From Candidatus Multivoradales bacterium (lineage in GTDB: Bacteria; Acidobacteriota; Thermoanaerobaculia; Multivoradales; Multivoraceae), in contig CBDCWI010000001.1 of assembly GCA_965223325.1 (NCBI GenBank), forward strand, positions 544,001 through 608,000: 64,000 nucleotides of DNA, written 5' to 3'. Made by a program: the position numbers and the translations under genes. The notes below the pieces were generated by a model. It was not told where the DNA came from. It ran no database searches and saw only the letters and a program-made list of their open reading frames with translations. Below, in pieces: positions 5,184-25,700 of the stretch; position 1 is the first letter of the stretch, and each line of letters starts with the position of its first letter.

Positions 5184-7709
5184 CTAGCGTCGAGTGACGA
5201 CGAGCAAAGCCAGCAGGGCGGCAAGCGACAGCACAACAATCATCGGAACCGTCCAGCGGACGGAACGCTCCGGCGTGAGACGAACGTTCTCGCCAATCAG
5301 CACCCACCCGGCCCAATCGACGGGATCCTCGAAGCGAGGGTCAGCGCGCAAGGCGCGCTGGGCTTTCTGGAGCGCGGTAGCCGCCGCCTCACCGCGACCG
5401 AGGTGCCAGTAGAAGCGCTCGACCAGCGCCTGGGTCGCAATGTCGTCGACATCCCAGAGGGAAGCGACGATAGAACGTGAACCTGCAGCCAGAAAGGCAC
5501 CGCCGAGAGTTTCGAGAACGCCGCTCGAGCGGCCCAGGGCACTCGAGCAGGCAGCTAGAACGGTCAGTTCTGTGGCGAGGTCGAGGTCGGCAATCTCAGC
5601 GCCGCCCAGACGACCCTCAGGATGAGCTGCATCAGCGGCTAGCCAGATCTCAGGTTCTCCTAGAAGACCCGCCGCCGAACGAGCGTGTGCAGCGATATGG
5701 AGAACGTCGACAGGCGGGGCCAGGGCGATCGCGCTTGGGTTCGCCGCGCTACCACGCGAGATGAGAGCGCGACCGCCCAGCCAACGTTCGGCGGCTGCCA
5801 CCTCGGCTTCTGCTCCAGGGAGCGCCGGCACGATTTCACCGGTCGGCGCTCGCGCTTCGTCTCCCGGAACAATCGCCAGCAGTCGCACCGCGGACTCCAC
5901 CTCGACGCTCGAGGGCTCCACTCTGTAGGCCGACGGCCGATAGAGAATCGTCACACCATCGACAAGGAAGCCACCTGAATCTCGAGCCGCCTCGACGGGC
6001 CGTGGCAAGAGAACAAAGGGCAACTCGCGCAACGCCAGGTCGGGCGAGATGACCAGCGCCTCGTCGTCAACGGCCTGCCATAGCGCGTCCGGAAGGAGCT
6101 GCCCCGCCAACCAGGCAAGGTCCAGCGAAGCGACCGCGTTCGCTCGCACGGCCGCGGCGACACTCAGTGCCCGCTCCATCACCGCAGCACTCGGCCCGAG
6201 GTCGAACACAGAGACGCCCGCGTCTCGATGAACGAAAACCAGAAGGCGCTCACCGGTTTGAAAGTAGTCGAGGACCACTTCTCGGGATCTGCCGTTGCCA
6301 GCCCGGCGGGTGCCAGGCGCGAGCGGCCCCCCGGTCTCGGTGCGGGTCACCAGGGCGCGATCCTTCGCACGCGACGCAAGATCGGCCGCCCGCTCCACCT
6401 GCGACGAGCTGTCGGCCAGGAGCACGCTCACGAACTCCTCGTACACCCCGCGCGACGCCACCAGGTAGCGGTGTCGACGCACGGTCGCCTCGATGCGCTC
6501 GCCCACATTCTCGATCTCGGCGGTTGCCCGCTCGAGGCGCTCGATCGCCGAGGCAAACGAACCGTCCTGGCGGTCACAGCGCGCGAGACCAAACTCGGCC
6601 GACCAGACTCCGGCCGCCGACTGCAACCCCTCGGACAACGCGAGGGTGCGCTCGAAGACCGGACGCGCACGCTCGCAGTCGCCCAGCCGCCAGAGGACCT
6701 CACCGCGGTTCCAGGAAGCTTCGATCTCGAGGACGGGATCGGCGGCCATGCGTGCCGCGTTCTCCACCCTCTCGAGCGACCGCCAGGCCGCGCCGAGATC
6801 GACGCGATCATGGAGCGCCACCTGGGCCCGGTTCATCTCGACGGTGGCGACGCCAAGCCGATCGCCGAGCCGCTCGTAGAGCTGTTCCGCTCGCTCGAAG
6901 TCTTCGAGCGCCGCGGCCCAGTCTCCGAGGTTGCGCAACACCACTCCCCGATTCAAGCGAGCCGCAGCCAGGACGTCGATCGTGACGGACTCTGAAGGCG
7001 CACCCAGAAGGGAGTCGAGCCGCTCCAGGGCGTCTTCGTACGAGCCAACTCTCTCGAGAACGATCGCCATGTTGAGCTGCGCCTCGGCCAGGCGTTGCGG
7101 TGACTCTAGACGCGCAAGAGACTGAGCGCGCTCGAGATTGCGCAGTGCCGATCCGTAACGTCCCATTCGCTCGTCGAGGACTCCGAGGTTGACCAGATTC
7201 GCCATCTCGCCGTCCCGATCGCGGGCGCTCCGGTTGCGTTCGAGCGCCTCGGCCAGGAGAACACGCGCTTCTTCTAATCGCCCGACTCCGCGCAGTGCAA
7301 TCGCCAGGTTGTTGACGCTCCGCGCAACCCCGGAGTCAGGAGCCTCAGCGGACTGCTCGAGCCGACGACGGATTCGGACCGCCGCCTGGCAGTCCGAAAC
7401 GGCTTCGGCGTGGCGCGTCAAGGCGTTGAGAGCCACGCAAGCGTTGTTTCGCGCACGGCCCGCCTCCCCCGCCAGGCCTTCTCTTTCGGCTCTGGTCGCA
7501 GCGCCCTGAAAGATCTCCACTGCCTCTTCGAGTCGACCGGCCGCGTAGGCTGCCAGGCCATCGTCGACGAGAGCGCGCACCGGCGGCCGTTCCTCCTCGG
7601 CATGCCCCGCGTGCCCGGCCAAAACAAAGAGACCAGAAGCCAAGATCCCGGTCAGGAACTGGCCTGTCAGGCCCTCGAGGCCCAGGCTCGCGAGAGAGGG
7701 ACGGTGCAC
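5184..7709 (-). CDS. TPR-CHAT (caspase-like peptidase) protein with N-terminal signal/TM and C-terminal TM anchor
   Basis: Multiple TPRs (NNLAIAL..G, NLGVL..MG.Y..AL). CHAT motifs LVISPD..L..LPF, HIAAH (His), VLAACSS (Cys), AFLAAGSRSIVASLWDVDD, P.DWAGWVLIG. Ends WTVPMIVVLSLAALLALLVVTRR. Confidence 0.9.
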   Translation of the reverse strand: MHRPSLASLGLEGLTGQFLTGILASGLFVLAGHAGHAEEERPPVRALVDDGLAAYAAGRLEEAVEIFQGAATRAEREGLAGEAGRARNNACVALNALTRHAEAVSDCQAAVRIRRRLEQSAEAPDSGVARSVNNLAIALRGVGRLEEARVLLAEALERNRSARDRDGEMANLVNLGVLDERMGRYGSALRNLERAQSLARLESPQRLAEAQLNMAIVLERVGSYEDALERLDSLLGAPSESVTIDVLAAARLNRGVVLRNLGDWAAALEDFERAEQLYERLGDRLGVATVEMNRAQVALHDRVDLGAAWRSLERVENAARMAADPVLEIEASWNRGEVLWRLGDCERARPVFERTLALSEGLQSAAGVWSAEFGLARCDRQDGSFASAIERLERATAEIENVGERIEATVRRHRYLVASRGVYEEFVSVLLADSSSQVERAADLASRAKDRALVTRTETGGPLAPGTRRAGNGRSREVVLDYFQTGERLLVFVHRDAGVSVFDLGPSAAVMERALSVAAAVRANAVASLDLAWLAGQLLPDALWQAVDDEALVISPDLALRELPFVLLPRPVEAARDSGGFLVDGVTILYRPSAYRVEPSSVEVESAVRLLAIVPGDEARAPTGEIVPALPGAEAEVAAAERWLGGRALISRGSAANPSAIALAPPVDVLHIAAHARSAAGLLGEPEIWLAADAAHPEGRLGGAEIADLDLATELTVLAACSSALGRSSGVLETLGGAFLAAGSRSIVASLWDVDDIATQALVERFYWHLGRGEAAATALQKAQRALRADPRFEDPVDWAGWVLIGENVRLTPERSVRWTVPMIVVLSLAALLALLVVTRR

Positions 7710-7727: not shown

Positions 7728-8342
7728 TCAGCCGTCGGCCATCGCCTGGGCGCCGCGCATGATCATGCGCACCTCGACGATGATGCGCTCCGCGACCGCC
7801 GGGCGCTCCTCGGGCGGCAGGTCGAGCGATGCAACCCCGAGGTTGAAGGCGACGGTCACCATCGCCTCGGCGGCGTGATGAGGATGGAGAATCGGCCGAT
7901 CGGTAGCTTCGGCCTCGCGCACCAGATCCTCGGCCAGGTCGTCGGCGAAGCGACTGATCTCCTTCGAGATCGCCCGCCTGAACTCGGGGGTGTTGCCTGC
8001 TCCTTCACCCAGCAGCAGCCGAAACTGGTGCGGCTCCTGACTGGCGAACTCCATGAACGTGTTGATGCAGTTCGAGATCACGTTGCGGTTGCCGTGCTCG
8101 TCGACCCGATGACGCGCCTCACGCACCAGTTGACGGAGGGACATACCGACCTGGTCGACCAGCGCCAGGCCGAGGTCGTCGATCGAGCGGAAGTGCCGGT
8201 AGAAGCTCGCCGGAGCGATTCCTGCCTCGTTGGCCACCGCCCTCAGGCTGAGGCTCGAGACGCCGCGCTCGGCGCTCAGGCGCAGGGCGGCAGCCATGAT
8301 GCTGTTGCGGGTGGCTTCCTTCTGATCGGCGCGCGTCGTCAT
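7728..8342 (-). CDS. fabR: TetR-family fatty-acid regulator, FabR/DesT-like
   Basis: From ATG 8342: RADQKEATR..LSAERGVSSLSLRAVANEAGIAPASFYRHFRSIDDLGLALVD..G..LRQL.REAR, closely following the E. coli FabR N-terminus as I recall it ([39 protein letters not shown]). Confidence 0.85.
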   Translation of the reverse strand: MTTRADQKEATRNSIMAAALRLSAERGVSSLSLRAVANEAGIAPASFYRHFRSIDDLGLALVDQVGMSLRQLVREARHRVDEHGNRNVISNCINTFMEFASQEPHQFRLLLGEGAGNTPEFRRAISKEISRFADDLAEDLVREAEATDRPILHPHHAAEAMVTVAFNLGVASLDLPPEERPAVAERIIVEVRMIMRGAQAMADG

Positions 8343-8485
8343 GCTGATATCGCTTCTTTGAGACTCCGGCGGCCCAGCATAACCGGGCCTCCGTCGGGCC
8401 CACCGCTCAGTGAACAGTCGATTCGTTGTGAGATTCCATGTTTTTCGACCTGATCCCGCATTCTTCGTCTGCTGTCTGCTAGTTT

Positions 8486-8505
8486 CAGCGAACAATTGTT
8501 CGCTG
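8486..8505. promoter_or_regulatory. Perfect 20-bp palindrome CAGCGAACAATTGTTCGCTG, putative FabR operator
   Basis: Self-complementary. Matches the FabR-type consensus AGCGWACA-NN-TGTWCGCT. Lies between the divergent fabR and pfa1 genes. Confidence 0.85.
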
Positions 8506-8599
8506 GCCCGGGAAACCGACCACCGCATCCGACTGCAGGGCGCTCTGCGCCGGCTAGCCCCTCTCACTCCCCATCGTCCTCGAGGGACCCCCCACCAAT

Positions 8600-10222
8600 A
8601 TGGAAGCCCACGCTGCACCCCCCAAGAGCGGTGCACAGGCAAGGTCAGCCTTTCGACAAGCGGACATTCTCGAGATCGTGCGCCAGCCACGCCAGCCGGT
8701 CAACATCGTCCTCGACCCAGGCACAGGGGCGCGTGGCGTAGCCCTCGCCGAGGCCTACGGAGAGCCAAGGACCAATGGACATCCCGGTCCCGAGGTGCTC
8801 ACAACCCTCCCGGCGCTCTTCCCGGAGTGGCTCGGCGACCGTTCGTTCACCGACACCCACGGCGTTCGCTACGCCTACGCGTCGGGCGCGATGGCCAATG
8901 GCATCGCCTCGGCACGGCTGGTGATCGAGATGACTCGCGCTGGTTTCCTGTCTTTCTTCGGCGCCGCGGGCCTGACGCCCACGCGTGTGAACCAGGCCTT
9001 GGATGAAATCGAGGCCGCGGTCGGGACCGCCGCCGACGGCGCGATCTGGGGCGCCAACCTGATCCACTCTCCCAACGAACCGGCCATCGAAGCCTCTGTC
9101 GCCGAGCTCTATGTCCGGCGCGGCGTACGGCGCGTCTCGGCGGCAGCGTACATGGGTCTAACGCCGCACATCGTGCGCTATGCCGCCACCGGTCTCGAGC
9201 GTGTCGCCGACGGCCGCATCGTCCGTCGCAACCATGTCTTTGCAAAGGTATCGCGCCCCGAAGTGGCACGGCACTTCATGCAGCCGCCACCCGCCGACCT
9301 TCTCGACGGGTTGGTCGCCGACGGCAAACTGACCCAGAACGAGGCTCTGCTGGCGCGCGAGCTGCCGGTCGCCGAAGACTTCACCGTCGAGTCAGACTCC
9401 GGCGGTCACACCGACAACCGTCCCCTCGGCGCTCTCTTGCCCACCATCCTGGCGCTGGCTTCTGAGATCAGCGAAGAGCGTTCGTACCATCGTCCGTTGC
9501 GCGTCGGCGCGGCCGGTGGGCTCGGAACACCGGGTGCGGTCGCCGCGGCGTTCGCGCTCGGGGCGTCCTATGTCCTGACCGGCTCGGTCAACCAGGGCTG
9601 CATCGAATCGGGCCTCGACGCGCTTGGCAAGACCATGCTGGCCGACGCCGGCATCGCCGACGTGGTAATGGCGCCGGCCGCCGACATGTTCGAGCTCGGG
9701 GTCGAAGTCCAGGTTCTAAAGCGCGGCACGATGTTCGGCGTGCGAGCCAAGAAGCTCTACGAGCTCTACCGCGAGTACGATGCCCTCGAGGCCCTTCCCG
9801 ACGACGAACGCCAGCGCCTCGAGCGCGAGGTGCTGCAGAAGACCGTCGAGCAGTCCTGGGCCGACACGCGCGAGTTCTGGCTCCAGCGCGACCCGGGTGA
9901 AGTCGAGCGTGCCGAGCGTGACCCGCGTCACAAGATGGCCCTGGTGTTTCGCTCTTACCTCGGCCTCGCCAGCCGCTGGGCGATCGACGGCCAGAGTGAC
10001 CGCCGTCTCGACTACCAGATCTGGTGCGGGCCCGCGATGGGCGCCTTCAACACCTGGGTGCGCGGCAGTTTCCTCGAGGACCCAGCCGAACGTCGCGTCG
10101 TGCAAGTGGCGCGCAACCTCATGGAGGGCGCAGCGGTGATCACACGCGCGCAGCAGCTGCGCAGCTTCGGCGTTCCCGTCCCGCCCGCCGCCTTCTCTTT
10201 CCGCCCTCGCCTTCTCACCTGA
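8600..10222 (+). CDS. pfaD: PUFA synthase enoyl reductase (PfaD / myxobacterial Pfa1)
   Basis: GAMANGIAS, NLIHSPNEP, ESDSGGHTDNR, VGAAGGLGTP, MAPAADMFELGV.VQVLKRGT.F, DYQIWCGPAMGAFN. Confidence 0.95.
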   Translation: MEAHAAPPKSGAQARSAFRQADILEIVRQPRQPVNIVLDPGTGARGVALAEAYGEPRTNGHPGPEVLTTLPALFPEWLGDRSFTDTHGVRYAYASGAMANGIASARLVIEMTRAGFLSFFGAAGLTPTRVNQALDEIEAAVGTAADGAIWGANLIHSPNEPAIEASVAELYVRRGVRRVSAAAYMGLTPHIVRYAATGLERVADGRIVRRNHVFAKVSRPEVARHFMQPPPADLLDGLVADGKLTQNEALLARELPVAEDFTVESDSGGHTDNRPLGALLPTILALASEISEERSYHRPLRVGAAGGLGTPGAVAAAFALGASYVLTGSVNQGCIESGLDALGKTMLADAGIADVVMAPAADMFELGVEVQVLKRGTMFGVRAKKLYELYREYDALEALPDDERQRLEREVLQKTVEQSWADTREFWLQRDPGEVERAERDPRHKMALVFRSYLGLASRWAIDGQSDRRLDYQIWCGPAMGAFNTWVRGSFLEDPAERRVVQVARNLMEGAAVITRAQQLRSFGVPVPPAAFSFRPRLLT

Positions 10223-10243: not shown

Positions 10244-13200
10244 ATGAAGATCTCTCCCGCCGACCGCTCCCCGATCGCCATTACCGGAATCAGCGCCCTT
10301 TTCCCCGGGTCGCTCGACGCCACCGGTTTCTGGCGCGACATTCTCGCCGGAGAAGACCGCATCACCGAAGTGCCAACGTCGCACTGGTTGATCGAGGACT
10401 ACTACGATCCCGACCCGACGGTCCCCGACAAGACCTACGGCAAGCGCGGCGGGTTTCTCAGAGACGTGCCATTCGACTCGATGGCCTGGGGGATTCCCCC
10501 CAACATCGTGCCCGAGACCGACACCTCGCAGCTCCTTGCCTTGATCGTCGCGCAGGCAGTTCTCGACGACGCGACGAAGGCGGGGAACGGGGTCGATCGG
10601 GATCGCACATCGGTCATTCTGGGAGTGACCTCGGGCCAGGAGCTCCTCGGTTCGATGGTCAGCCGGCTGCAGCGGCCGGTATGGATCAAAGCGCTGCGTG
10701 AGTCTGGCGTACCCGAGACTGAGGCGATCGCGATCTGCGAGCGCATTGCTTCGCACTACACCGACTGGAACGAGAGCACCTTCCCGGGCCTACTCGGCAA
10801 CGTCGTCGCCGGTCGCATCGCCAACCGCCTCGATCTCGGTGGCACCAACTGCGTGACCGATGCGGCCTGCGCCTCGACCTTCTCGGCCCTGTCGATGGCG
10901 GTCTCTGAACTGCAACTCGGCGACTCGGATGCGGTGATCGCCGGCGGCGTCGATGCGATGAACGACATCTTCATGTTCATGTGCTTCAGCAAGACACCGG
11001 CACTCTCGCCAACCGGCGACTGCCGGCCGTTTTCTGACCAGGCCGACGGCACGATGCTCGGGGAAGGGCTCGGCATGGTGCTGCTCAAGCGCCTCGAAGA
11101 CGCCGAACGCGATGGCGACCGGATCTACGCCGTCATCAACAGCGTCGGCGCGTCGTCTGACGGCCGGTCGAAGAGTGTCTACGCGCCGGTTTCGGCCGGC
11201 CAGGCCAAAGCACTCGAGCGCGCCTACGAGCTCGCCGGCTACGGCCCCGACACGGTCGAACTGCTCGAAGCGCACGGCACCGGCACGATCGCTGGCGACG
11301 CCGCCGAGTTCAACGGCCTCTGCCTGGCGTTCGACCGCCAGCGCTCCGACCGCCAATGGTGCGCCCTCGGTTCAGTGAAGTCACAGATCGGTCATACCAA
11401 GTCGGCCGCCGGGGCCGCGGGTCTGCTCAAGGCGGTCTTGGCGGTGCACCACAAGGTGCTTCCGCCGACCATCAAGATCGACAAACCCAATCCGGCCCTC
11501 GACATCGAGACATCGCCCTTCCACTTCGCACTGCGCTCGCGCCCCTGGGTTCGAGGCAGAGATCACGAGCGGCGCGCTTCGGTGAGTTCCTTCGGCTTCG
11601 GCGGGTCGAACTTTCATGTCACCGTCTCGGAGTATCAGGAGAAAGAAGACAGCCCGGCGACCGCGGCCCCGAGGCTGCGAGCCGAGGGTGCCGAGCTGCT
11701 CTTGTTCTCGGCCGCTGAAGCTGCCGGCGTTGAAGCCCAGCTGAACGAAGCGCTCCAGATGGCCGACGAACCTGGTGCGCTCGCCTTTCTCGCCCACCGC
11801 GGCCAAGACCGATTCGACGCCCAGGCGCGCTGTCGCCTGGCGATGGTCACCAACGAAGAAGACCTCGCCGAGCGCCTGGGCGAAGCCAGCGGGCACCTCA
11901 CGCGCGCCCCTCACGAGTCGTTCGAAACCCCCTCGGGAACGCTCTACCGCGACGTGCCCGACGCCGGGTCCAGAGACGACGGCAAGACCGCGTTTCTGTT
12001 CTCCGGCCAGGGCAGCCAGTACATCGACATGGGCGGCGAGCTGGCGATGCACTTCGACAGTGCGCGCGAACCGTGGGATCTCGCCGCAGACTTCGACTGG
12101 ACGAGCTCGGGTGAGGAGAATCATCGCCTCCATCAGGTGGTGTTCCCACCCAACGCCTTCTCTGACCAGGCGCGGGCCGAGCACAGCGGGCGTTTGTCGG
12201 CGACCGAATGGGCGCAGCCCGCGATCGGATGCGTGAGCCTCTCGATGCTTTCACTCCTCGGCGACCTCGGCCTGGCTGCCGATGCATTCGCCGGCCACAG
12301 CTTCGGCGAGGTCACCGCTCTGTGTGCGGCGGGCGCCATCTCGCCGGAGGATTTCTTGGAGGTCGCACGGCGTCGGGGCGAGTTGATGCGCGACGCCGCC
12401 AGTGCACCCGGCGCCATGACCGCCGTCGCGGCGACCCTCGACCAGGTCCAAAGCGTGCTCGGCGAGGGGCCCAGCGAAGTCGTGGTGGCCAACCACAACC
12501 ATCCCGAGCAGGTCGTGCTCTCAGGGCCGACCCCGGCAGTCGAAGCGATCGAAAAGCGCTTCGACAAAGAAGGCATCACGGCGCGCCGCTTGCCGGTGGC
12601 CACTGCCTTCCACTCACCGATCGTCGCGCCGGCGAGTCTTGCGTTCGGCGAGTTCCTGGCGGGAGTCGACTTCGAAGCTCCAGTTCTACCGGTCTACTCC
12701 AACACCACCGCCACTCACCACCCCACCGCGCCGGCGACGCTCCGGGAACGAATCGCCGAACAGCTCGCACACCCGGTGCGCTACGTCGACATGATCGAAG
12801 CGATGTATGCCGACGGCGTGCGCACCTTCGTCGAGGTGGGTCCCGGATCGATCCAGACCAGCCTGGTGAGAAGGATCCTAGGCGACCGGCCACACCGAGC
12901 GGTCAGCCTCGATCGCAAGGGGCAACACGGCCTGGTGCCGTTTCTGCGTGGCATCGCGACCCTGGCAGTCGACGGCCACGCGATGTCCTACGAAGCACTC
13001 TGGAAGGGCTATGACGCCCCGAGCGATCCGCGCGAGCGCCCGGTGCCGAAACTCTCGATTGCGATCAACGGCGCCAACTACGGCAAGCCCTACCCACCGC
13101 TCGAAGGAGCGAGCGTTCTGCCGGGACCCAACCCGGCACGCGAGCCGGTTGCTGCGGCCGCCCCAGCACCGGCGAAGCCGGCGGCACCTGCGCGCCCCCC

Positions 13201-16200
13201 CGCTCCGCCGGTCGCGACCGAGCCCGCAGCGCCCGGACCGCAAATGGCGGCCGCCGTGCAGGAGACGCAGCGCCAAACCGCCGAGGCCCATTCGCGGTAT
13301 CTCGAAATGATGGCCGAGAGCCACACAGCGTTTCTCGACGCCATGGAGCGCGGCATGCGCGTCGCAACCGGCGATACTTCCGGAGCGACCCTATCGACGG
13401 AGCCAGTGGCTGACCCGGTAGAACCGCTGCAACCACCTTCCTCGGCAGTTCCCGCGGCCTCACCTGCTCCACCGGTCGCGCCACCACCGGAAAGACCGGC
13501 CAGCTCGCCGCCGCAACCAGCAGCTGTCGATCTTCGCGCCGTGATGCGCCAGGTGGTCTCCGAAAAGACCGGTTACCCCAGCGAAATGCTCGACGAGAGC
13601 ATGGAGCTCGAGGGCGATCTCGGAATCGACTCGATCAAGCGTGTCGAAATCCTCTCGGAAATGACCGATCGTGCTCCCGGCCTACCCGAGCTCGACACCG
13701 CTGAGCTGGCCGAGCTGCAGACTCTCGCTCAGGTGGTCGCCTACCTCCAGGAAAGGCTACCGAGAGCAACAACAACCGCGGCGGCGCCACCGGCCCCCGA
13801 AGCCGTTTTTCCGGCAATCGACCTGCACCAGATGATGCTGCAGGTGGTTTCGGAAAAGACCGGTTACCCCGCCGAGATGCTCGACGACGCCATGGAGCTC
13901 GAAGGCGATCTCGGAATCGACTCGATCAAACGCGTTGAGATTCTCTCCGAGTTGACCGACCGCGCCCCCGGCCTGCCGGAGCTCGATACCGCTGAGCTCG
14001 CCGAACTGCAGACGCTCGGCCAGGTGGTCGCCTACCTCCAGGAAAGGCTACCGAGAGCAACAACAACCGCGGCGACGGCACCGGCCCCCGAAGCCGTTTT
14101 TCCGGCAATCGATCTGCACCAGATGATGCTGCAAGTGGTTTCGGAGAAGACCGGTTACCCCGCCGAGATGCTCGACGACGCCATGGAGCTCGAAGGCGAT
14201 CTCGGAATCGACTCGATCAAACGCGTCGAGATTCTCTCCGAGATGACCGACCGCGCCCCCGGCCTGCCTGAGCTCGATACCGCTGAGCTCGCCGAACTGC
14301 AGACCCTCGGCCAGGTCGTCGCCTATCTCGAAGCCAGGCTCCCCGGTCAAACCTCTGCGGGTACCGGAGAGCCGATGACGACTGCCGGACCCGAGACCCG
14401 CGACACGACCACTCCTGGCAGTCCGGCCTTTGGCCGCTTCGTTCTCACTCCGGTCGAGCGACCGGCGCCGGGACTGGCGGTCCGCGGCTTGTTCGGGCAG
14501 GGCCCGCTCTATGTCACCGAGGACCGGGCGTTCTCAGAGGGCGAAGGAGTCCAGGAGGCCCTGGTCAACCGGCTCCGCGCCGAGGGCATCGACGCCCGCG
14601 CCGGCAACGTCCCAGCGACCAACGGCAGCACCCCGCCGCTCGGCGTGATCGTGCTCTCAGGTCTCCGCGCAGTCGACGACGCGCAGGATGCAACGGCCGT
14701 CAATCGCGAGGCGTTCGCGCACGCCCAGGCCGCCGCTCCTTACCTCGTCGAGGCTTCCGAAGGTGTCTTCGTCACGGTGCAGAACACCGGCGGAGCCTTC
14801 GCCCACGACAAAGGCCGCGGACAGTCGGCGATGGATCCGGATCGTGCCTGGCTCGCGGGATGTGCCGCCCTCGCCCGAACGGTGGCCGCCGAGTGGCCGA
14901 GAATCGGAACCAAGGCGATCGACATCGAAGGCCACGGTCGCACGGCTCGAGAGATCGCCGATGCGATTGCTTTCGAGCTCCTCGCCGGTGGTGCCGAGCT
15001 CGATGTCGGCCTGCTCGCCGACGGGCGACGGATCCTGCTCGCTGATCCCCAGTGCGCACCGCGTCCCGAGAGGCCAGCTCTCGAAGACGGCGATGTTGTC
15101 GTCGCCGCGGGCGGTGGGCGCGGCGTCACGGCCGCGACGCTGATCGCCCTCGCCGGCACCGCGAAGCTTCGGTTCGTCTTGCTCGGCCGCACCGCAATAA
15201 CCGAAGAACCTGCCTGTTGCCGGGGGGTCCAGGGAGACGCGGAGCTCAAGCGCGCCCTCCTCACCGATGCCTCGGAGCGCGGCGAGAAGCTCAGGCCGGC
15301 CGAGCTCGGGCGAACGGTTTCGAAGATCCTCGCCAACCGCGAGATCGACGCGACTCTTTCAGCCATTCGTGCCGCCGGTTCGGAGGCACGCTACGTCGCC
15401 ACCGATGTCACCGACGCTCGAAAACTCGCCGCCTCCCTCGACGAGGTGCGCTCCTCGTGGGGCGAGATCGCCGGCGTCGTCCATGGGGCGGGAGTTCTCG
15501 CCGACAAGTTGATTGGCGAGAAGACAACCGAGCAGTTCGACCGGGTGTTCGACACCAAAGTCCTGGGTCTTCGGGCCTTGCTCGAAGCAACCGCGAAGGA
15601 CCCGCTGCGGGCGATCTGCCTGTTCAGCTCGGTCGCCGCCCGAACCGGCAACCTCGGTCAAAGTGACTACGCGATGGCCAACGAAGTGCTCAACAAGGTC
15701 GCCCAGGTCGAAGCGCGAAGGAGGGGCGACAGCTGCGTCGTCAAGGCGATGGGCTGGGGTCCCTGGAAGGGGGGCATGGTGTCCGACGAACTGGCGGCGC
15801 ACTTCGAGAGCCAGGGAGTCCCCTTGATTCCGCTCGACGTCGGCGCACAGATGCTCGTCGACGAGCTCGACCATGGTGACGCAGCAACCATCGAGGTCAC
15901 CCTCGGCGGCGATCCCGGTGGGGCGCGCATGAACGCCACCGACGGTTCATACCGAAGCGAAGTGCGCATCGACCACGAGAGTCACGCCTTTCTCTTCGAC
16001 CACAGCATCGACGGGACGCCGGTGGTGCCGATGGTGCTGGCCCTCGAGTGGTTTGCGCGCGCCGCGCGCTCGGCAGCCGGCGACCAGGTGGTCACTGGCC
16101 TGAGCGACTTCGAAGTCGTGCGCGGTATTGCACTACCGGAGCTCGACGCCCGCCCGGCACGTTTCACCATCGACGCAAAGCCAGAAGCAGGAGGAGCCGA

Positions 16201-16780
16201 GCTCGACCTCGAGCTGCGCGCTCCCGACGGCGCACTGCACTATCGGGCGCGGGCGCGGTGTGTGTCTGCCCAGGATCTCGAGCCCTCGAACGGATCAGCA
16301 GCAGAGCTCGACCTCGAGCTCGAACCGTGGGGTGACCGGGTGATCTACGACCATCCGGCGCTCTTCCACGGGCCGCGCTTCCAGGTCATCGAAGGGGTCG
16401 ACGGCCTTTCCGATCGGGGCATCGCGGTGCGCTTGCGCGGAGTCGCCGCCAGCAACTGGACCGGCAAAGGCGAACAGCCGCCGGGCTCCGCCGCCGGTGG
16501 CGGCTGGTTCACCGATCCCGCGGCGCTCGACGGCGGATTGCAAGCGGCGATCCTGTGGTGCGATCACGTCCTCGATGGCCGTGCCCTGCCCACCCGCATC
16601 GACAAAGTCGAGCTCGGTCGCGCGCTGCCCACCGGCAACGGCCTGCGTTGTGAAGTGAGTGGTCGCGAGAGTGCCAACCACCGCGGCATTTCCGATGTTC
16701 GTTTCCTCGACGGCAACGGCCAGCTCCTGTTCGAGCTGCGTGGTCTGCAGACCCACGTGCGCGCACCCTCCGCTTCGTAG
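10244..16780 (+). CDS. pfaA: PUFA synthase KS-MAT-ACPx3-KR-DH (PfaA / Pfa2)
   Basis: KS DAACAS, EAHGTGT, GHTK. MAT GHSFG and AFHS. Three ACPs with DLGIDSIKRVEIL. KR GGGRGV and DYAMAN. DH DHSIDGTPVVP. Confidence 0.95.
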   Translation: MKISPADRSPIAITGISALFPGSLDATGFWRDILAGEDRITEVPTSHWLIEDYYDPDPTVPDKTYGKRGGFLRDVPFDSMAWGIPPNIVPETDTSQLLALIVAQAVLDDATKAGNGVDRDRTSVILGVTSGQELLGSMVSRLQRPVWIKALRESGVPETEAIAICERIASHYTDWNESTFPGLLGNVVAGRIANRLDLGGTNCVTDAACASTFSALSMAVSELQLGDSDAVIAGGVDAMNDIFMFMCFSKTPALSPTGDCRPFSDQADGTMLGEGLGMVLLKRLEDAERDGDRIYAVINSVGASSDGRSKSVYAPVSAGQAKALERAYELAGYGPDTVELLEAHGTGTIAGDAAEFNGLCLAFDRQRSDRQWCALGSVKSQIGHTKSAAGAAGLLKAVLAVHHKVLPPTIKIDKPNPALDIETSPFHFALRSRPWVRGRDHERRASVSSFGFGGSNFHVTVSEYQEKEDSPATAAPRLRAEGAELLLFSAAEAAGVEAQLNEALQMADEPGALAFLAHRGQDRFDAQARCRLAMVTNEEDLAERLGEASGHLTRAPHESFETPSGTLYRDVPDAGSRDDGKTAFLFSGQGSQYIDMGGELAMHFDSAREPWDLAADFDWTSSGEENHRLHQVVFPPNAFSDQARAEHSGRLSATEWAQPAIGCVSLSMLSLLGDLGLAADAFAGHSFGEVTALCAAGAISPEDFLEVARRRGELMRDAASAPGAMTAVAATLDQVQSVLGEGPSEVVVANHNHPEQVVLSGPTPAVEAIEKRFDKEGITARRLPVATAFHSPIVAPASLAFGEFLAGVDFEAPVLPVYSNTTATHHPTAPATLRERIAEQLAHPVRYVDMIEAMYADGVRTFVEVGPGSIQTSLVRRILGDRPHRAVSLDRKGQHGLVPFLRGIATLAVDGHAMSYEALWKGYDAPSDPRERPVPKLSIAINGANYGKPYPPLEGASVLPGPNPAREPVAAAAPAPAKPAAPARPPAPPVATEPAAPGPQMAAAVQETQRQTAEAHSRYLEMMAESHTAFLDAMERGMRVATGDTSGATLSTEPVADPVEPLQPPSSAVPAASPAPPVAPPPERPASSPPQPAAVDLRAVMRQVVSEKTGYPSEMLDESMELEGDLGIDSIKRVEILSEMTDRAPGLPELDTAELAELQTLAQVVAYLQERLPRATTTAAAPPAPEAVFPAIDLHQMMLQVVSEKTGYPAEMLDDAMELEGDLGIDSIKRVEILSELTDRAPGLPELDTAELAELQTLGQVVAYLQERLPRATTTAATAPAPEAVFPAIDLHQMMLQVVSEKTGYPAEMLDDAMELEGDLGIDSIKRVEILSEMTDRAPGLPELDTAELAELQTLGQVVAYLEARLPGQTSAGTGEPMTTAGPETRDTTTPGSPAFGRFVLTPVERPAPGLAVRGLFGQGPLYVTEDRAFSEGEGVQEALVNRLRAEGIDARAGNVPATNGSTPPLGVIVLSGLRAVDDAQDATAVNREAFAHAQAAAPYLVEASEGVFVTVQNTGGAFAHDKGRGQSAMDPDRAWLAGCAALARTVAAEWPRIGTKAIDIEGHGRTAREIADAIAFELLAGGAELDVGLLADGRRILLADPQCAPRPERPALEDGDVVVAAGGGRGVTAATLIALAGTAKLRFVLLGRTAITEEPACCRGVQGDAELKRALLTDASERGEKLRPAELGRTVSKILANREIDATLSAIRAAGSEARYVATDVTDARKLAASLDEVRSSWGEIAGVVHGAGVLADKLIGEKTTEQFDRVFDTKVLGLRALLEATAKDPLRAICLFSSVAARTGNLGQSDYAMANEVLNKVAQVEARRRGDSCVVKAMGWGPWKGGMVSDELAAHFESQGVPLIPLDVGAQMLVDELDHGDAATIEVTLGGDPGGARMNATDGSYRSEVRIDHESHAFLFDHSIDGTPVVPMVLALEWFARAARSAAGDQVVTGLSDFEVVRGIALPELDARPARFTIDAKPEAGGAELDLELRAPDGALHYRARARCVSAQDLEPSNGSAAELDLELEPWGDRVIYDHPALFHGPRFQVIEGVDGLSDRGIAVRLRGVAASNWTGKGEQPPGSAAGGGWFTDPAALDGGLQAAILWCDHVLDGRALPTRIDKVELGRALPTGNGLRCEVSGRESANHRGISDVRFLDGNGQLLFELRGLQTHVRAPSAS
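13529..14340 (+). repeat. Three tandem ACP-coding units, 291-bp period, near-identical DNA
   Basis: Repeated gaaaagaccggttacccc...ggcgatctcggaatcgactcgatcaa blocks starting at about 13529, 13820 and 14111. Confidence 0.9.
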
Positions 16781-16787
16781 TCAGGAG

Positions 16788-19700
16788 ATGACAACGAAGA
16801 ACAACGGCGCGCCGAACCAGGAGCGCCACGCCGCCGTCGCGCCGATCGCGATCGTAGGGCGTGCCTGCGTGCTCCCGGGAGCACTCAGCCCAGAGGCTCT
16901 CTGGGAGCACATAGCCGCCGGCTCTGACCTTCTCGGGCCGGCACCTCCGGGTCGATGGTCGAAAGAACGCTCCAACCAGAGCTACCTGTCTGACCCCGAT
17001 GAAGACCCGGTCGATCGCACCTGGTCCGACCGTGGCGGCTACGTCGAGGGCTTCGACGAGGTCTTCGACCCTGAAGGTTTCGGCGTCGTCGCAGCCGAGA
17101 TCGAAGGTCTCGACCCGCTCTTTCAGTGGACGCTGCATACGGCGCGTGAAGCGCTTCGCGACGCGGGCCTCGCCCCTGGCGACGATCCCACCCGCCGCGG
17201 TGCGGTTCTCGGCAACCTTTCGTTCCCGAGCGCCAGCCTGGCAGCCTTTGCCGACCGCGTCTGGCGCGGCGAGAGCGCCGCCGAAGAGAGCCCACCGACG
17301 GTCGATCCGCGCAACCGTTTCCACTCCGGCCTGCCGGCTCTCCTCCTCGAAGACGCGCTCGGTCTCGAAGCGGGCGCCTTTGCGCTCGACGCCGCCTGCG
17401 CCAGTTCGCTTTATGCCCTGGCCTTTGCCTGTGACCGCTTGCGCGCGGGCGAAGCCGATGTGATGCTCGCCGGGGCGGTCAACTGCTCCGACGACCTGTT
17501 CATCCACATCGGCTTCTCGGCTCTCGCCGCGCTGAGCCGGAGCGGGCAAAGTCGGCCCTTCCACGCCGAAGCCGACGGCCTGGTGCCGGCCGAAGGTGCC
17601 GCGTTCGTCGCCCTCGAGCGCCTCGAAGATGCGGTCGCCGCCGGTCGCAGAATCCATGGCGTGATCCGGGGCATTGGCCTCGCCAACGATGGGCGCGGCA
17701 AGGGCTTCCTGGTTCCAGCCTCCGAGGGCCAGGTGCGGGCGATGGAGAACGCCTACCGGCAGGCCTCTCTATCGCCGCTCGACATCGACTGGTTCGAGTG
17801 CCACGCCACCGGCACCACCGTTGGCGACGGCACTGAGCTGGCGAGTCTCGAAGCCCTCTCTGCCGTTGCGGAAGAAAAGAGCGAGACCACTAGAAGTCAG
17901 CAGCAGCCCCTCGGGTCGCTCAAGTCGAACCTCGGCCACCTGATCACGACGGCAGGACTCGCGGGGCTCATCAAAGTCCTCGAAGCAATGCGGGCCGGTG
18001 TGATGCCACCTACCCTGCACGCCCTTCACGCCCACCCGGCACTCGACGGCAGTCGCTTCCGGCTGCTCACTGAAAAGGAACCTTGGCCGGCTGGCGAAGG
18101 GCCCCGCCGCGCTGCGGTGTCGGCTTTCGGCTTTGGCGGCAACAACGCTCATCTGGTGGTCGAAGAGTGGCGACCCGAAGCTCTCCCTACCGGTCAGCTG
18201 CCAGCGCAGGCGATCGAACCGCGCCACGAGGACCTGGCGATCGTTGGCATCGATGTCGTCACCGCAGCCAGCAGTGCCAGGGCTGAAACAGCTTTTCCAG
18301 ACGTCCTCTTTGGCGATAGCCCCGGCAGCGTGGACCGCCAGATGCGCGACTTCCTGATCGATGTCAGGGCGGCCGCCATTCCTCCCCATGATCTCTCAGA
18401 GACTCTCGCCCAGCAGCTCCTCATGCAGGAGTGCGGCAGTCGCGCTGCCCGGGCGGTGTCATTCGACCGCGAACGCACCGGCGTTTTCATTGGCATGGGC
18501 GTCGACGCCGACATCGCTCGTTACGGCGCGCGTTGGCGTGCGACAGAGTCTGGCGACGACCAAGAAGCCGAAGCGGCGCGCTCACAGATCGCCCCGCGCC
18601 TGCGATCGGCCGGCGTGCTCGGCACGATGCCCAATGTCGTCGCCAATCGCCTGAATCGGCGTCTCGACATCGGCGGTGCGAGCTGCACCGTTTCGGCCGA
18701 GGAGCTTTCTGGTTTGCGCGCCCTCGAGCTGGCCTGTGCGGCGCTTCGGCGTGGCGACCTGGATGCGGCGCTGGTCGGAGCGATCGACATGTCTTCGGAA
18801 GCAGTGCACCGCACCGCCGCCAGGAGCGCCCTCGATCCCCCCCGTCGCCGCGCCGCAGATGCAGCGGTGTCGTTGGTGATCAAACGCCTGGCCGATGCGC
18901 GCCGCGACGGAGACCATGTCCACGCCGTGCTCTCCGAGTACTCAGGCAACGCAGCACCGCGCGAGCCGCGAGGCGAAGACCCAGAGGCGCTGGTCTTCGG
19001 TCTCGATGAAGGCTGTGCGCTCACTCCCCGTTTCGGACACTCGCATGCCGCCTCCGGATTGCTGCATTTGGCGGCGGCCGCTCTGGCCATCGAGCACGGG
19101 CGCCGCCCCGGCGAAGACCCGCGCGAACCGTGGCCGACCTGGCGCGGCGCGCGGCGCGCGCGGGTTGTGGTCCAAGCGATGCCGACAGCGAGTGCGCCAG
19201 GAAAACGCCGTTCCACAATGACCTGGGAGCTCGCCGCGCCCGGCGGTGCCAAGACCGCGGCAGGGACACAGCGGCCAGGAACCGCACAGCTGCTTTACGT
19301 CTACGATGGCGCGGACCGCGCCCAAGTCCTCTCTGGCCTCAAGGCCCATCGATCGTGCACTGCCGAGGAAGCACCAGCAGCGGCGGCAGGCGCCCGCCTG
19401 GTCATCGCGGCCGAAGATCGCGCCACCTTCGAGCGCCGACATGCTCGCGCTCTCCGCCATCTCGAGTCGGGAGCGCCGGCAGGTACAGGGGTTCATTTCC
19501 GCGACAGTAGAGTGACCGGCGACCTCGGCTTTGTCTTCGCCTCGGCAGGCACGGCGTACCGGGGCATGGGGGGCGACCTGCTGGCTGCCCTGCCGGGGCT
19601 CGCCGAAGAGAGCCGCGAACGATTCGGCGACCTGGACCGAAGCCTACGTTGGGCGCGCCGCCAGGAGGGCGAAGAGAGTAACGACAACGCCGAGCGTCTG

Positions 19701-22700
19701 TGGGCCAGCTCAGCCTTTTCGCGCTTGCACGCGGAACTCACCCAGGGGTTGCTCGGGCTCGCGCCGCAGGCCGCTATCGGCTACAGCTCGGGAGAAAGCA
19801 CGTCGCTATTCGCCACCGGTGCGTGGACCGACATCGAGGACATGCGCCGTGACATCGAGGAAGAAGGCCTTTACGACCCGGCACTCGGGGGCACCTTCGA
19901 TGCGGTCGCCGAGGCCTGGCGAAGCGGCCCACGTCCCGATTTCAAAGGGCCAGTCGAGTGGGCAGTGTGGAACGTGCTGGCGCCAGTCAACGAGGTGCGC
20001 GCGGCCCTCGCCGAGTTGCCGGCGCCGCTGGTGCACCTGGCGATCATTCACACCGCCTCGAACTGCGTCATCGCTGGCGACGAGGCGCTCGCCGAGGAAG
20101 TCGTCGAGCGCATCGGTCGTCGGCGTTGCCAGCGCCTTCTCTACGACATCGCCGCCCACGTGCCGGAGGTCGAGGCGTGGCGCGAGGCCTGGCTGCGCAT
20201 TCACCGGCGGCCGGTCACACCGGTTCCCGGAGTGCGCTTCTACTCCGCCGGCCGCAGGGGGGGATACCACGCCAACAGCGACGACTGCGCGCAGGCGATC
20301 CTAGAGCAGGCGATCGCCACGCTCGACTTCCCGCGCGTCATCGAAGATGCCTGGGCCGATGGCGTGCGTGTCTTCATCGAGCATGGGCCGCAAGCGGCCT
20401 GCTCGGGCTGGATCCGCGAGATTCTCGGCGAGCGTGCCACCGAAGCGGTGATCGTCGCCCTCGACCACGGCACGAGCTCTGAGGAGAAGACTACCGGCGA
20501 CCCGAACGAAGCCATCGCTCGCGGCTTTCTGCCAATCGTCAATGCCACCGGCGCTCTCCTGGCCGCCGGTGTCGATGTGAACGCCTCCGCGCTCGAGGAT
20601 GCGTTTTTCGAGAGAACGCTCGCAGCGTCGCCTGCCATGCGCGGGCAAGCGTCGGGCGCCGCATCGGGTCAGATGATGCGGGTTCCCGCGCACTGGCCGC
20701 CGGTACGGTTTCCGGAGCCCGGTGCCGAATGGATGGCACCGGCGCCCACGCTACCGCCGGTCGAAAAACAGAACAGTTTGCCGAAGGCGCTTCGACCCAT
20801 CGTGCCGGCGGTGCTCGAACCCGCCGCGCCGCCCGAGGAACTGCTGCGGGTTTCTCAGAACGTCTCCTTCAAAGAAGTTTCATCAGTTTCATCGAAAGAA
20901 GCGCTGGGCCCCTCGCCGTCTCCCTCTTCCACCGTTCCGCTGGTAGCGGCTCCTTTGCCGGGAGCCGCTTCGAGCTCCGCCTCTGCCCTCGCCACGACGA
21001 CCACTTCGGTCGCAGCAGCCCTCCCGATCCCAGCGCGCAGCTCATCGGCGATCACCGCCCTCGACCACATGACCCGGGTTCACCAACAGTTTCTCGAACA
21101 ACAGGCGACCGTGCATCAGCGCTTCCTCGAGACCCGCCTCGGCCAACCGCAGCAGCTCCCGCAGTCACAACCACGCCGGCTGCCCGCGTCACCCAAGCCG
21201 CCGCCCCCGAGCCCCACGAACGGGGCCGCTGGGGCCAAGCCAGTTGGCAGCCGGGTCGCACAGCCGACCCCTCTACCGCCACAACCAACCGCCTCGCCGA
21301 AAGCACCGGCGACAGCACAACGTGCTTCCGGGAGAGAACCCACCGGACTCGCTCTCGACAGAAAAGGTCTCGAGATCCACGCTTCGGGCCGCATCAGCGA
21401 GATCTTCGGTCCGCTGTTCGAAGAACAAGACGACTACCCTCGCCAGGTTCGCATGCCCGAACCGCCGCTCCTGCTCGCCGACCGCATGACCGGCCTCGAC
21501 GCCGAGCCCGGCGTTCATGGCACCGGCACCCTGTGGACCGAGACCGACGTCACCGAAGACTCGTGGTATCTCAACCGCGGTCGCATGCCGGCCGGCATTC
21601 TCATCGAGTCGGGCCAGGCCGATCTGATGCTGATCTCCTTCATGGGCGCCGACCTCCTGAACAAGAGCGAGCGCGTCTACCGCCTGCTCGGCTGTGAGCT
21701 CACCTTCCTCGATGATCTGCCCCGACCCGGGGAAACGCTCTGTTACCAGATCGAAGTCGACGGACACGCGGAGCAAGACGGCATTCGGCTGTTCTTTTTT
21801 CACTATGACTGTCACGTCGCCGGGCGCCCGCGCATCCAGGTTCGCGGCGGGCAGGCGGGCTTCTTCTCCGACCTCGAGCTCTCGCGCTCGGCTGGCATCC
21901 TGTGGACGCCCGAAGACGCCGACCCCTGTGCCGAGCCGCGCCTCGACCCGCCCGACGTCGTGTGCACGCGGTCGTCGTTCAGCCAGGAACAGGTCGAAGC
22001 GTTCGCTGCTGGTCGACCCTGGGACTGCTTCGGACCGGGCTTTGACCTTACGCGTACCCATTCCGACACGCCCACCATTCAAGGTGGCGACATGCTGTTT
22101 CTCGACACGGTCAGCCAGTTCGACCTGAGCGCTGGCCCCTGGAAGCGCGGCTACCTGCGCGCCGAAGCTGCGGTTGGCCCGAACGATTGGTTCTTTGCGG
22201 GCCACTTCAAAGGTGACCCCTGTATGCCCGGCACTCTGATGTTCGAGGGCTGCGTGCAGGCACTGTCTTTCGCCATGGCCGGGATGGGATTCACCACCAC
22301 CCGAGACGGCTACCGCTTTCAACCGGTTACCGGTGAACCGATCGCAATGCGCTGCCGCGGCCAGGTGACACCCGAGTCCCGAGAGCTCACCTACGAGGTG
22401 TTCATCGAAGAAGTGATCGCCGGCCCGAGGCCCAGGATCTACGCGGATCTTCTGTGCACCGTCGATGGGTTGAAGGCTTTCCATGCGCGTCGCGTGGGGC
22501 TCGAGTTGGTTCCTGACTGGCCGCTCGAGAGCAACCCGCGCCTTCTCGAGGCGCTCCTCGAGGAGGCGGCTCGGCACCCCGGCGCTCAGCACGACAAACC
22601 AGCCGCGCAAGCTGAGAGCCCCGACGGAACGGTGCACACCTTCGGCTATCCGTCGTTGCTCGCCTGCGCCTGGGGAAGGCCTTCTAAGGCTTTCGGGCCG

Positions 22701-25700
22701 ATCTACGAACGCTTCGATAGCCCCCGCCGGGTTCCGAGATTGCCCGGGCCGCCGTACCACTTCATCTCGCGGGTGCTCGAAATCGAAGGTGAGATCGGAG
22801 CGATGGAATCGGGGTCGACGGTCACCGTCGAGTACGACGTGCCCGAAGACGCCTGGTACTTCGACGACAACGGCAGTCGCTCGATGCCCTACGCTGTACT
22901 CCTCGAGGCGGCCCTCCAACCCTGTGGCTGGCTGGCGAGCTACGTTGGCTGTGCCCTCTCCGTCGATGTCGACCTCGCATTTCGCAACCTCGACGGCACG
23001 GGCACCGTTTTCCAGGAGATCTTCGATCACCTCGACGGTGAGGCCCCGAACACCCTTCGTACCGAAGTCGAGCTGACCAATATCGCCAGTCAGGCCGGCA
23101 TGATCATCGTCTCGTTCGATGTCACTTCTTTCGTCGGCGGCGAGACCGCTTACACGATGGACACGGTGTTCGGGTTCTTCCCACCCGAAGCGCTCGCCAT
23201 GCAGGTGGGCCAGGCGATCAGTGATGAAGAGCGTGCCCTGATCGGCCGCCGCGCCGAGAGGACGATCGAGCTCCGCACCGAACCCGAGCGCTACTTCGGC
23301 GGCTCACTGGGCTCCGGGTCTCTGGCCCTCGGTTCTTTGGCACTGGGACGCGGCAAGCTGCGCATGCTCGATCGCATCACCGGCTATTGGCCCGATGACG
23401 GCGAAGCCGGTCTCGGTGTGGTGCGCGGCGAACGCGATGTCATCGCGGACGACTGGTACTTCAAGGCACATTTCTTCCAGGACCCTGTCCAACCCGGTTC
23501 ACTGGGCATCGAGGCGATGCTGCAGCTGCTCCAGTTCTACGTCATCGAGAGCGGCGTCGCCTCTTTTCTCGACCAGCCGCGTTTTGAGCCCATCGCTCTC
23601 GAGCAGCCGCTGACCTGGAAGTACCGCGGGCAGGTGGCGCCAGATTCCGAACGCATCACGGTGACGCTCGAGGTCACCGAAGTGCGGCGCGAAGAGGACA
23701 GCGTCGTCGCAGTGGCCAACTCGTCTCTGTGGTGTGACGGCTTGCGGATCTACAGTGCCGAGAACGTGGCGGTGCGCGCGGTCAGTGGGCCCGTACCTCA
23801 AAGCAAACGCGCCACGGCGTCGAACGCGGCCAGAGCAGTCGAGACCTCGCCTTCAGCAACAAGATCAAATGCCGCTTCCGACGTGACCTTCGAGAACTCA
23901 CACACTCTCGATCCCGCCGTCGATCTGTGGCTCGCCGACCACTGCCCTACCTGGGCGCGACCGGCGCTGCCGATGATGGCAATCGTCGATCTTCTGGCAC
24001 GCGGGGTGCCCGAGGAACTCACCGTGACCGGTCTGTCGGATGTCGCAGTCCGCGCCTGGATCGACTTCGAAGGGCCAAGAACGCTCTCCACCAAGGCACA
24101 GGCCATCGCGCCGGGCCGCTTCACTGTGCGTCTGCTCGCCAACGGCGACGACGGTACGCCGTTCGAAGCGGCCTCGGCGATCGTTGAAACCGGTGCGTTT
24201 GCCGAGCCACCACAGCCCAGCGCAACCCTCGAGGTCGGCGAAGCCCTGGTGGCACCCTATGCCGCTGGGCACCTCTTTCATGGACCGGCCTTCGAGCTCA
24301 TGCGCTCGGCGACCCTCGCCATCGAGGGCGCCTCGGCGCTCCTCGGCCTGGTCGCCAACGGCAGCGTTCAGGTGCCAGTCGGCCGGCTCAATCCCGGGCT
24401 CCTCGACGCGGCGCTGCACGCCATACCGCATGACCGTTTGCACTTCTGGTCGCGTGACATCGACCAGGACAAAGTCGCCTACCCCGCTCGCATTCCAAAA
24501 CTCGAGATCTTCGCGCCCACACCGAAACCAGGCAGTGACCCCGATGCCGACGAGGTGCGCGTCGAGGTGCGCTTTGACGGCTTCCTGGTTCGCCCCGACC
24601 TGCCACGCTTTCAGGTCGAGATCATCCATCAGGGTGCGGTGTGGGCACGCATGACCCTCATCGAAGCCTGTTTCCCCAAAGGAGCCCTGGGTATGGCTCC
24701 CCCGGCAGACCGGCGCGCCTTCCTACGCGACAAGCGCTACGTTCCGGGTCTGCGGCTCTCGACCACCGAGACCGACTCCTCGGGCCTGGTCACCACCCGT
24801 CTCGACCCTCGAGCTGTTGCGGCGAGCGATTGGATGCCGGGCACGATGGCTGCGATCTATGGCACCACCGATCCGCGACTGATCGCCAAGAAGGAACACC
24901 TCGCCGAGCGCTACGCGCTTCATCCACGCATCCTGCCGGAGGCCCTTCCTCTTCAAGCGGAGGCGGTGAAGGTCGACGAGCAGGCCGGGGCGGTCGTGGT
25001 TCGTGACAGCACGGGAGAAGACGGCCTGGCCCTCGAACTGAGCGGTGTTCGCGATCACTGGCGACGCCGTTTCGGTGTGCCGTCTCGCTGGCTCGGCGAA
25101 CAGATCGTCGAGGGCCTGCTCGAACGCTACGTCCGTCGCGTCGTTTTCAGCAAGCCGGAGGGCCACGCCGCCCTCGCCGGGAGAGGCGCGATCTTCGTCG
25201 CCAATCACCAGGTCCAGATCGAGTCGATTCTGGTCACTCACCTGCTCGGCGCCCTTCTGGGTCACGACGTCGTGACGATGGCCAATGCGAAGCACGAAGA
25301 GCGCTGGATCGGCTGGCTCATTCGTTGCCTTCAGTCCTTTCCTGGCATCTCACCCGACGCTCTGCCGTTCGAACCCATCGTCTACTTCGACCAGTCCTCG
25401 CCCGACTCGATGTTCGAGATCCTCGCCAGGATCGCACCCGACCTCGAGTCGGGCAAGCGCTCGTTCTTCTTCCACGCCGCCGGCACCCGCAGTCGACATG
25501 CGCCCGACCCGGTCACCCGGCTGAGCTCGGTGTTTCTCGACCTCGCGGTAGAGAACCAGCTTCCGATCGTGCCGATTCGTTTCACCGGAGGGCTCCCTGA
25601 GGAGCCGATTCTGGAGAAGCTCGAGTTTCCCGCCGGGCACGCGCGCCAGGACTACTGGATCGGTGGCCCCATCGAAGCCACCGAACTGGCAGCTCTCCCC

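Follow-up and report, generated by a model that had tools for sequence, protein, structure and literature searches.

The divergent fabR and pfa1 genes of the window (the whole 64-kb stretch of DNA analyzed here) are separated by a region that holds a perfect 20-bp palindrome, through which FabR probably acts as a local repressor of the pfa1-pfa2-pfa3 operon; binding, the direction of control, and the ligand are what we infer within this reading. The regulator belongs to the FabR family, the palindrome matches the motif of that family, the match is unique in the genome, and the divergent gene pair is conserved in related loci together with its boxes. The features discussed below are collected in Table 1.

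Table 1. Features of the fabR-pfa region and genes elsewhere in the same genome
Feature	Position	Strand	Description	Basis or remark
fabR	7728-8342	-	FabR-family TetR regulator, 204 aa (P0001)	Translation, Pfam, NCBIfam
fabR/pfa1 intergenic region	8343-8599	none	Divergent, 257 bp	Flanking gene calls
Half-site AGTGAACA	8409-8416	+		Present; second-operator role unsupported
Predicted FabR operator CAGCGAACAATTGTTCGCTG	8486-8505	none	Perfect 20-bp palindrome	18-bp core at 8487-8504
pfa1	8600-10222	+	PfaD-family enoyl reductase, 540 aa	TIGR02814; Pfam NMO and FabD_helical_ins
pfa2	10244-16780	+	KS-AT-ACP(x3 or more)-KR-DH, 2178 aa	Pfam domains
pfa3	16788-25934	+	KS, second KS-like domain, two FabA-like dehydratases, C-terminal AGPAT-like acyltransferase	Pfam
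Second pfa-like cluster (L031, L032)	G000:C1 ~734,000-749,900 (outside the window)		PfaD-family reductase; KS-AT-4xACP-KR-DH; KS/KS-like/AT/2xFabA-DH	
Two PF00487 genes	G000:C1:782551-783207 and C1:1633753-1634376		Desaturase family	Pfam

The FabR regulator and its predicted operator

The fabR product, P0001, carries the Pfam domains TetR_N (PF00440) and TetR_C_46 (PF21943). Its score against the NCBIfam FabR equivalog NF008402 was 220.7 bits (cut-off, 151), with profile positions 2 to 198 of 211 aligned, and the second-best NCBIfam family reached 40.8 bits; a repeat search of the genome with the NF008402 profile gave 221 bits. Alignment with the annotated FabR of an Escherichia coli RefSeq genome revealed 97 identical residues of 199 (49%; E value, 4e-61) and an almost unchanged helix-turn-helix (HTH) stretch, which upholds the divergent FabR homolog of the preliminary description. 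The closest solved structure is that of DesT (3lsj; E value, 6.5e-24; residues 3 to 198). Thus, all sequence-level criteria, i.e., a whole-protein score that exceeds the curated cut-off of the equivalog, an HTH combined with a TetR ligand domain and full-length similarity to E. coli FabR, and, at the predicted target promoter, a cognate palindrome of the type AGCGTACA-NN-TGTTCGCT, identify P0001 as a true member of the FabR family. Control of fabA and fabB apparently does not extend to this protein, since fabA was not found and no box above shuffle level was detected outside pfa. A 320-aa open reading frame listed at positions 7728 to 8690 was rejected as an over-extension of the TetR gene.

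The operon that diverges from fabR has the layout of the myxobacterial-type pfa1-pfa2-pfa3 clusters, with the reductase first, followed by two multidomain genes and a terminal AGPAT-type acyltransferase, the match to the latter being marginal (23.2 bits; cut-off, 23). The AGPAT domain is described as peculiar to myxobacterial PUFA synthases in the available text of PMC6163206. pfa1 scored 621.6 bits against TIGR02814 (pfaD_fam; cut-off, 449), and its ATG at position 8600 is the first start codon past an in-frame stop. The ATG of pfa3 (16788) is preceded by AGGAG and by the pfa2 stop codon (16778 to 16780); the Pfam domains of this gene were assigned on the open reading frame 16659 to 25934. 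The module is flanked by two further genes on the minus strand. An 841-aa protein with TPR and CHAT domains is encoded directly downstream of fabR (5184 to 7709), with no link to the pfa module in the flanks of the relatives checked, and the 3' end of pfa3 faces a convergent gene (25945 to 27045) whose 366-aa product has a GNAT acetyltransferase domain.

The palindrome CAGCGAACAATTGTTCGCTG, read at positions 8486 to 8505, is identical to its own reverse complement. It ends 94 nt before the pfa1 ATG, close to the distance of about 95 bp given earlier, and 143 nt separate its other end from the start codon of fabR. This single box of the window is centered 105 bp before the pfa1 ATG; no other match to CAGCGAACAATTGTTCGCTG was found in the 64 kb when up to 3 mismatches were allowed, and 100 shuffles yielded 0. 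The 18-bp core fits both the E. coli FabR motif, quoted as AGCGTACACGTGTTCGCT, and the similar site at Shewanella oneidensis desA, as these are given in the accessible part of PMC4273635. By its motif, the palindrome is therefore a canonical FabR box. Scans of positions 8250 to 8700 returned 0 promoter-like sites with the sigma-70 consensus and no terminator, which leaves no predicted transcription start against which to position the operator.

A half-site nearer fabR had also been pointed out as part of this region. The letters AGTGAACA are present, yet their frequency is no better than chance: the window contains 6 copies of AGYGAACA where 2.9 are expected, and 6 of 100 shuffles reached that number. 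The FabR-box matrix described below scored this stretch at -4.4 bits (position 8406). Given this score and the chance-level abundance of the 8-mer class, the half-site was rejected as a second operator.

The FabR box across the genome and in related loci

A genome-wide motif scan, which the preliminary description had called for, set the pfa site apart. The degenerate core pattern had 1 exact match in the 6.69-Mb genome, the window site itself; no other sequence came within 1 mismatch of the pattern, and 7 differed from it at two positions. A 24-column matrix built on 15 sites from 11 other loci, with the window excluded, scored the window site at 27.6 bits and the runner-up in the genome at 17.4 bits; its training sites were chosen by likeness to the window palindrome, and the score is hence independent of the window letters but not of the motif. 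The maxima in three mononucleotide-shuffled genomes (18.1 to 20.2 bits) were above the runner-up, and in the matrix scan of the 6.69 Mb no box rose above shuffle level except that at pfa. Because the next site falls within the shuffle range, FabR apparently has one operator, and it looks like a dedicated local regulator rather than a global fab regulator.

Other possible routes to unsaturation carry no such box. No fabA emerged when the genome, which is 98.2% complete, was searched with PF07977; the matches were the dehydratase domains of the PUFA synthases and one stand-alone gene, which is fabZ (TIGR01750, 187.7 bits) inside an lpxD-fabZ-lpxA group. Of the absences that had been proposed for checking, that of fabA held and that of desaturases did not, as the genome has two PF00487 family members. 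Both of these are far below every NCBIfam cut-off for a named desaturase, the top NCBIfam match of the first one is an arginine hydroxylase model (also far below the cut-off), and the matrix scan detected no FabR box at either gene. The second pfa-like cluster of this genome has no terminal acyltransferase, an AMP-binding enzyme being encoded next, and lacks both a FabR gene and a box with up to 3 mismatches near its pfa1. As the genome also contains two genes of the desaturase family and another pfa-like cluster, none of them with a box, the earlier notion of the pfa operon as the organism's route to unsaturation proved too strong.

The reductase of this second cluster groups with that of the sole cluster of a same-genus genome (G001), which is itself devoid of FabR. 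The pfa clusters of G001, G007, G012, G025, and G030 contain neither a FabR gene nor a box with up to 3 mismatches near pfa1; the lone 3-mismatch match among them (L036, position 8035) is ~5.5 kb from pfa1. Synteny with G001, inspected for the borders of a possible fabR-pfa insertion, was limited to short matches of 68 to 88% nucleotide identity, none of them usable.

Conservation of the palindrome at orthologous clusters, another check proposed at the outset, was evident in every related locus in which the intergenic DNA is present. Divergent fabR and pfa1 genes were found in all five genome-derived relatives (L001, L002, L006, L007, and L008), which come from two metagenome-assembled genomes (MAGs) labelled Myxococcales and from G008, G010, and G015. 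Each of the five has an intergenic match to the core with up to 3 mismatches, a kind of match that the window's genome contains once per 57 kb by way of background. Metagenomes contributed 80 loci. In eight of them, the FabR protein is 59% or more identical to that of the window, with a box upstream of fabR in 7 and pfa1 detected by tblastn in 5; the eighth (L044) is on a contig without DNA upstream of fabR, and L041 and L043 are near-duplicates that lower the independent count by one. In L042, pfa1 was detected only at a looser threshold, and the L039 contig is too short to show it. Among the remaining 72 loci, with FabR proteins of 45 to 52% identity, including the enterobacterial type, a box was present within the fetched DNA in 4, which indicates that a fabR-adjacent box is no general property of fabR loci. 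The box is present in 12 of the 12 related loci whose intergenic DNA is included. In a separate comparison, the fabR of a gut metagenome gave no megablast match in E. coli and was anchored there at 82% identity by a distant-mode search.

Many relatives have two boxes, one proximal to fabR and the other to pfa1. In most of them, the pfa1-proximal box is centered ~17 to 66 bp before the pfa1 start. A strong box lies directly beside the fabR start in L002, L007, L008, and L040, and that of L007 is the only strong box of the locus, 183 bp from pfa1. One of the Myxococcales MAGs deviates in the length of the spacer, which is ~770 bp (L001:2233-3000) versus 180 to 260 bp elsewhere, with both boxes at the pfa1 end.

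Two of the more distant metagenome loci have other neighbors. On a contig of 44% G+C (L103:1165-3127), the gene for a FabR 48% identical to that of the window diverges from a fatty-acid desaturase gene, and the DNA between them holds two canonical FabR boxes. The layout is that of the window, but the target is another. A contig of 64% G+C (L083:590-640) features an exact-core box ~200 bp upstream of the gene for a FabR of 52% identity; the divergent neighbor, cut by the contig end, encodes 219 aa with no Pfam match.

Predicted repression of the pfa operon and alternative readings

DNA binding by FabR and DesT is favored by unsaturated long-chain acyl thioesters. In the regulation that we consider probable here, a FabR dimer would bind the 20-bp palindrome in the shared control region and hold down transcription of pfa1-pfa2-pfa3, possibly along with transcription of fabR itself. 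If the protein works like E. coli FabR and Pseudomonas aeruginosa DesT, its C-terminal domain would sense long-chain acyl-ACP or acyl-CoA, with unsaturated thioesters favoring the FabR-DNA complex and saturated ones leading to release. Plentiful unsaturated acyl chains would then throttle PUFA synthesis.

The direction of this regulation is suggested by box geometry and by precedent. With the pfa1-proximal box close to the start codon in most relatives and 105 bp away here, the arrangement fits occlusion or a roadblock rather than an upstream activator site; in the relatives, a promoter hardly fits between the box and the pfa1 start codon. The desaturase locus L103, with its two boxes, mirrors the fabR/desA pair of S. 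oneidensis and also favors repression. Counting against it, the window box is farther from the ATG than those of most relatives. The characterized FabR proteins are repressors, according to the available text of PMC4273635 and bioRxiv 10.1101/2020.01.28.924217, and this stands against the unlikely case of a FabR that occupies the palindrome as an activator of the pfa operon, in the manner of PfaF, and is released by acyl-CoA. That case draws on the sole experimentally defined pfa regulator, a TetR-family activator released by oleoyl-CoA, as reported in the portion of bioRxiv 10.1101/2020.01.28.924217 consulted, and on the distance of 105 bp in the window, at which a site upstream of the promoter is conceivable. 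The little room left for a promoter downstream of the box in most related loci speaks against it. So does the lack of PF13972 among the Pfam matches of P0001: this is the C-terminal domain reported for PfaF (PBPRA0221), a protein compared here by its description. The same preprint, as far as its text was available, describes Photobacterium profundum as controlling pfa through the TetR activator PfaF, with pfa expression unchanged upon deletion of fabR; the presence of FabR in a pfa-bearing organism therefore does not by itself imply control.

It is improbable that the palindrome serves fabR autoregulation only, the adjacency of pfa being inherited synteny without control. With its single genomic operator used in this way, the regulator would control nothing besides itself, a box close to pfa1 is found in most relatives, and fabR is found solely in genomes with this pfa subtype; moreover, S. 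oneidensis fabR is reported, in the available text of PMC4273635, not to be autoregulated despite the intergenic region that it has in common with desA. The strong boxes beside the fabR start in four loci, and the missing strong pfa1-proximal box in L007, point the other way, and in view of L007 the box may in some loci serve mainly autoregulation. Hardly credible is a palindrome bound by another factor, or arising as a chance inverted repeat, with FabR acting elsewhere. TetR paralogues are indeed numerous in this genome (31 first-look candidates), but chance matches were nil in the shuffles, the sequence fits the FabR motif and not just any palindrome, the related intergenic regions have kept their boxes without exception, and no other genomic site exceeds shuffle level. 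Repression of pfa1-pfa2-pfa3 by FabR is the reading that we retain.

Distribution, known systems, and implications

FabR was detected in 4 of 41 related genomes, all of them among the 9 of 41 with PfaD over the cut-off. In an even sample of 401 genomes of the phylum, the window's own genome was the only one with FabR, in a search that scored up to 7 first-look candidates per genome and may have missed some FabR proteins. In an 18-row pfa1 tree, the 10 FabR-linked genes form one clade (support, 97/95), sister to two clusters without FabR; upstream of these two are enoyl-CoA hydratase and thiolase genes, or unnamed open reading frames, and no regulator. As judged from these sequences, the fabR-box-pfa unit behaves as one heritable module. 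According to the available text of PMC5343134, FabR is conserved in Gammaproteobacteria, whereas the remaining proteobacterial classes covered by that analysis lack it. Together with the count of 1 in 401, this restriction makes horizontal acquisition of FabR likely.

E. coli FabR (YijC), the repressor of fabA and fabB, shares with P0001 the NCBIfam equivalog, 49% of the residues, a nearly identical HTH, and the 18-bp box type. In E. coli, fabR adjoins yijD and trmA, apart from its targets, whereas fabR of the window is divergent from its presumed target; the genome of the window, from a lineage outside Gammaproteobacteria, has no detected fabA, and the single operator found precedes a PUFA synthase. 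P. aeruginosa DesT, the nearest relative of P0001 with a solved structure, is nevertheless clearly more distant than FabR. DesT is a TetR-family sensor of acyl-CoA saturation, and its targets are desaturase genes, not a PUFA synthase.

A parallel in arrangement is found in Shewanella, where FabR represses fabA and desA, and the intergenic DNA between the divergent S. oneidensis fabR and desA holds a FabR box (PMC4273635, available text). There, too, fabR faces an unsaturation gene across a box, and comparative genomics has placed pfaRABCD in the predicted FabR regulon of six Shewanella species (PMC5343134, available text). Shewanella pfa, however, is one of several targets; its genes are of the gamma-type pfaRABCD(E) and lie apart from fabR. 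The cluster of the window is of the myxobacterial pfa1-3 type, in which the acyltransferase is fused, and is the only target found for its regulator. PfaF of P. profundum resembles the regulator of the window in being a TetR-family protein; it binds the pfa promoter and responds to fatty acyl-CoA. It differs in being an activator encoded away from pfa, in its Pfam domain PF13972, and in protecting a different 22-bp sequence (bioRxiv 10.1101/2020.01.28.924217, in the text available).

The FabR protein, its motif, and a predicted FabR-pfa link in Shewanella are already known. The literature searched, which covered few subscription journals and in part only portions of papers, yielded no FabR or named regulator at a myxobacterial pfa cluster. 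The wiring, presented in the preliminary description as unfamiliar for myxobacterial-type clusters, keeps its novelty for these clusters in that literature and loses it for FabR and pfa in general, owing to the prediction for Shewanella in the available text of PMC5343134. What our comparisons suggest as new is the setting of a known regulator: a phylum new to it, a neighboring PUFA synthase of another type, and a regulon apparently cut to one operon.

Biotechnological PUFA production makes use of myxobacterial PUFA synthase clusters. With its canonical FabR and a predicted operator that is single and clean, the locus offers a testable switch composed of one protein, one 20-bp site, and one operon. 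It would also be a compact example of regulon rewiring, in which a multi-gene controller of Gammaproteobacteria has, in another phylum, a PUFA synthase as its sole apparent target. More speculatively, and with considerable doubt, a gammaproteobacterial-type FabR may have been gained horizontally by one myxobacterial lineage and fixed beside one pfa1-3 subtype as a single-operon sensor, with all other targets lost, perhaps now reading the PUFA-thioester product itself. If this were true, the AGPAT-coupled PUFA synthase would be a homeoviscous membrane system under product-feedback control, not a secondary-metabolite pathway.
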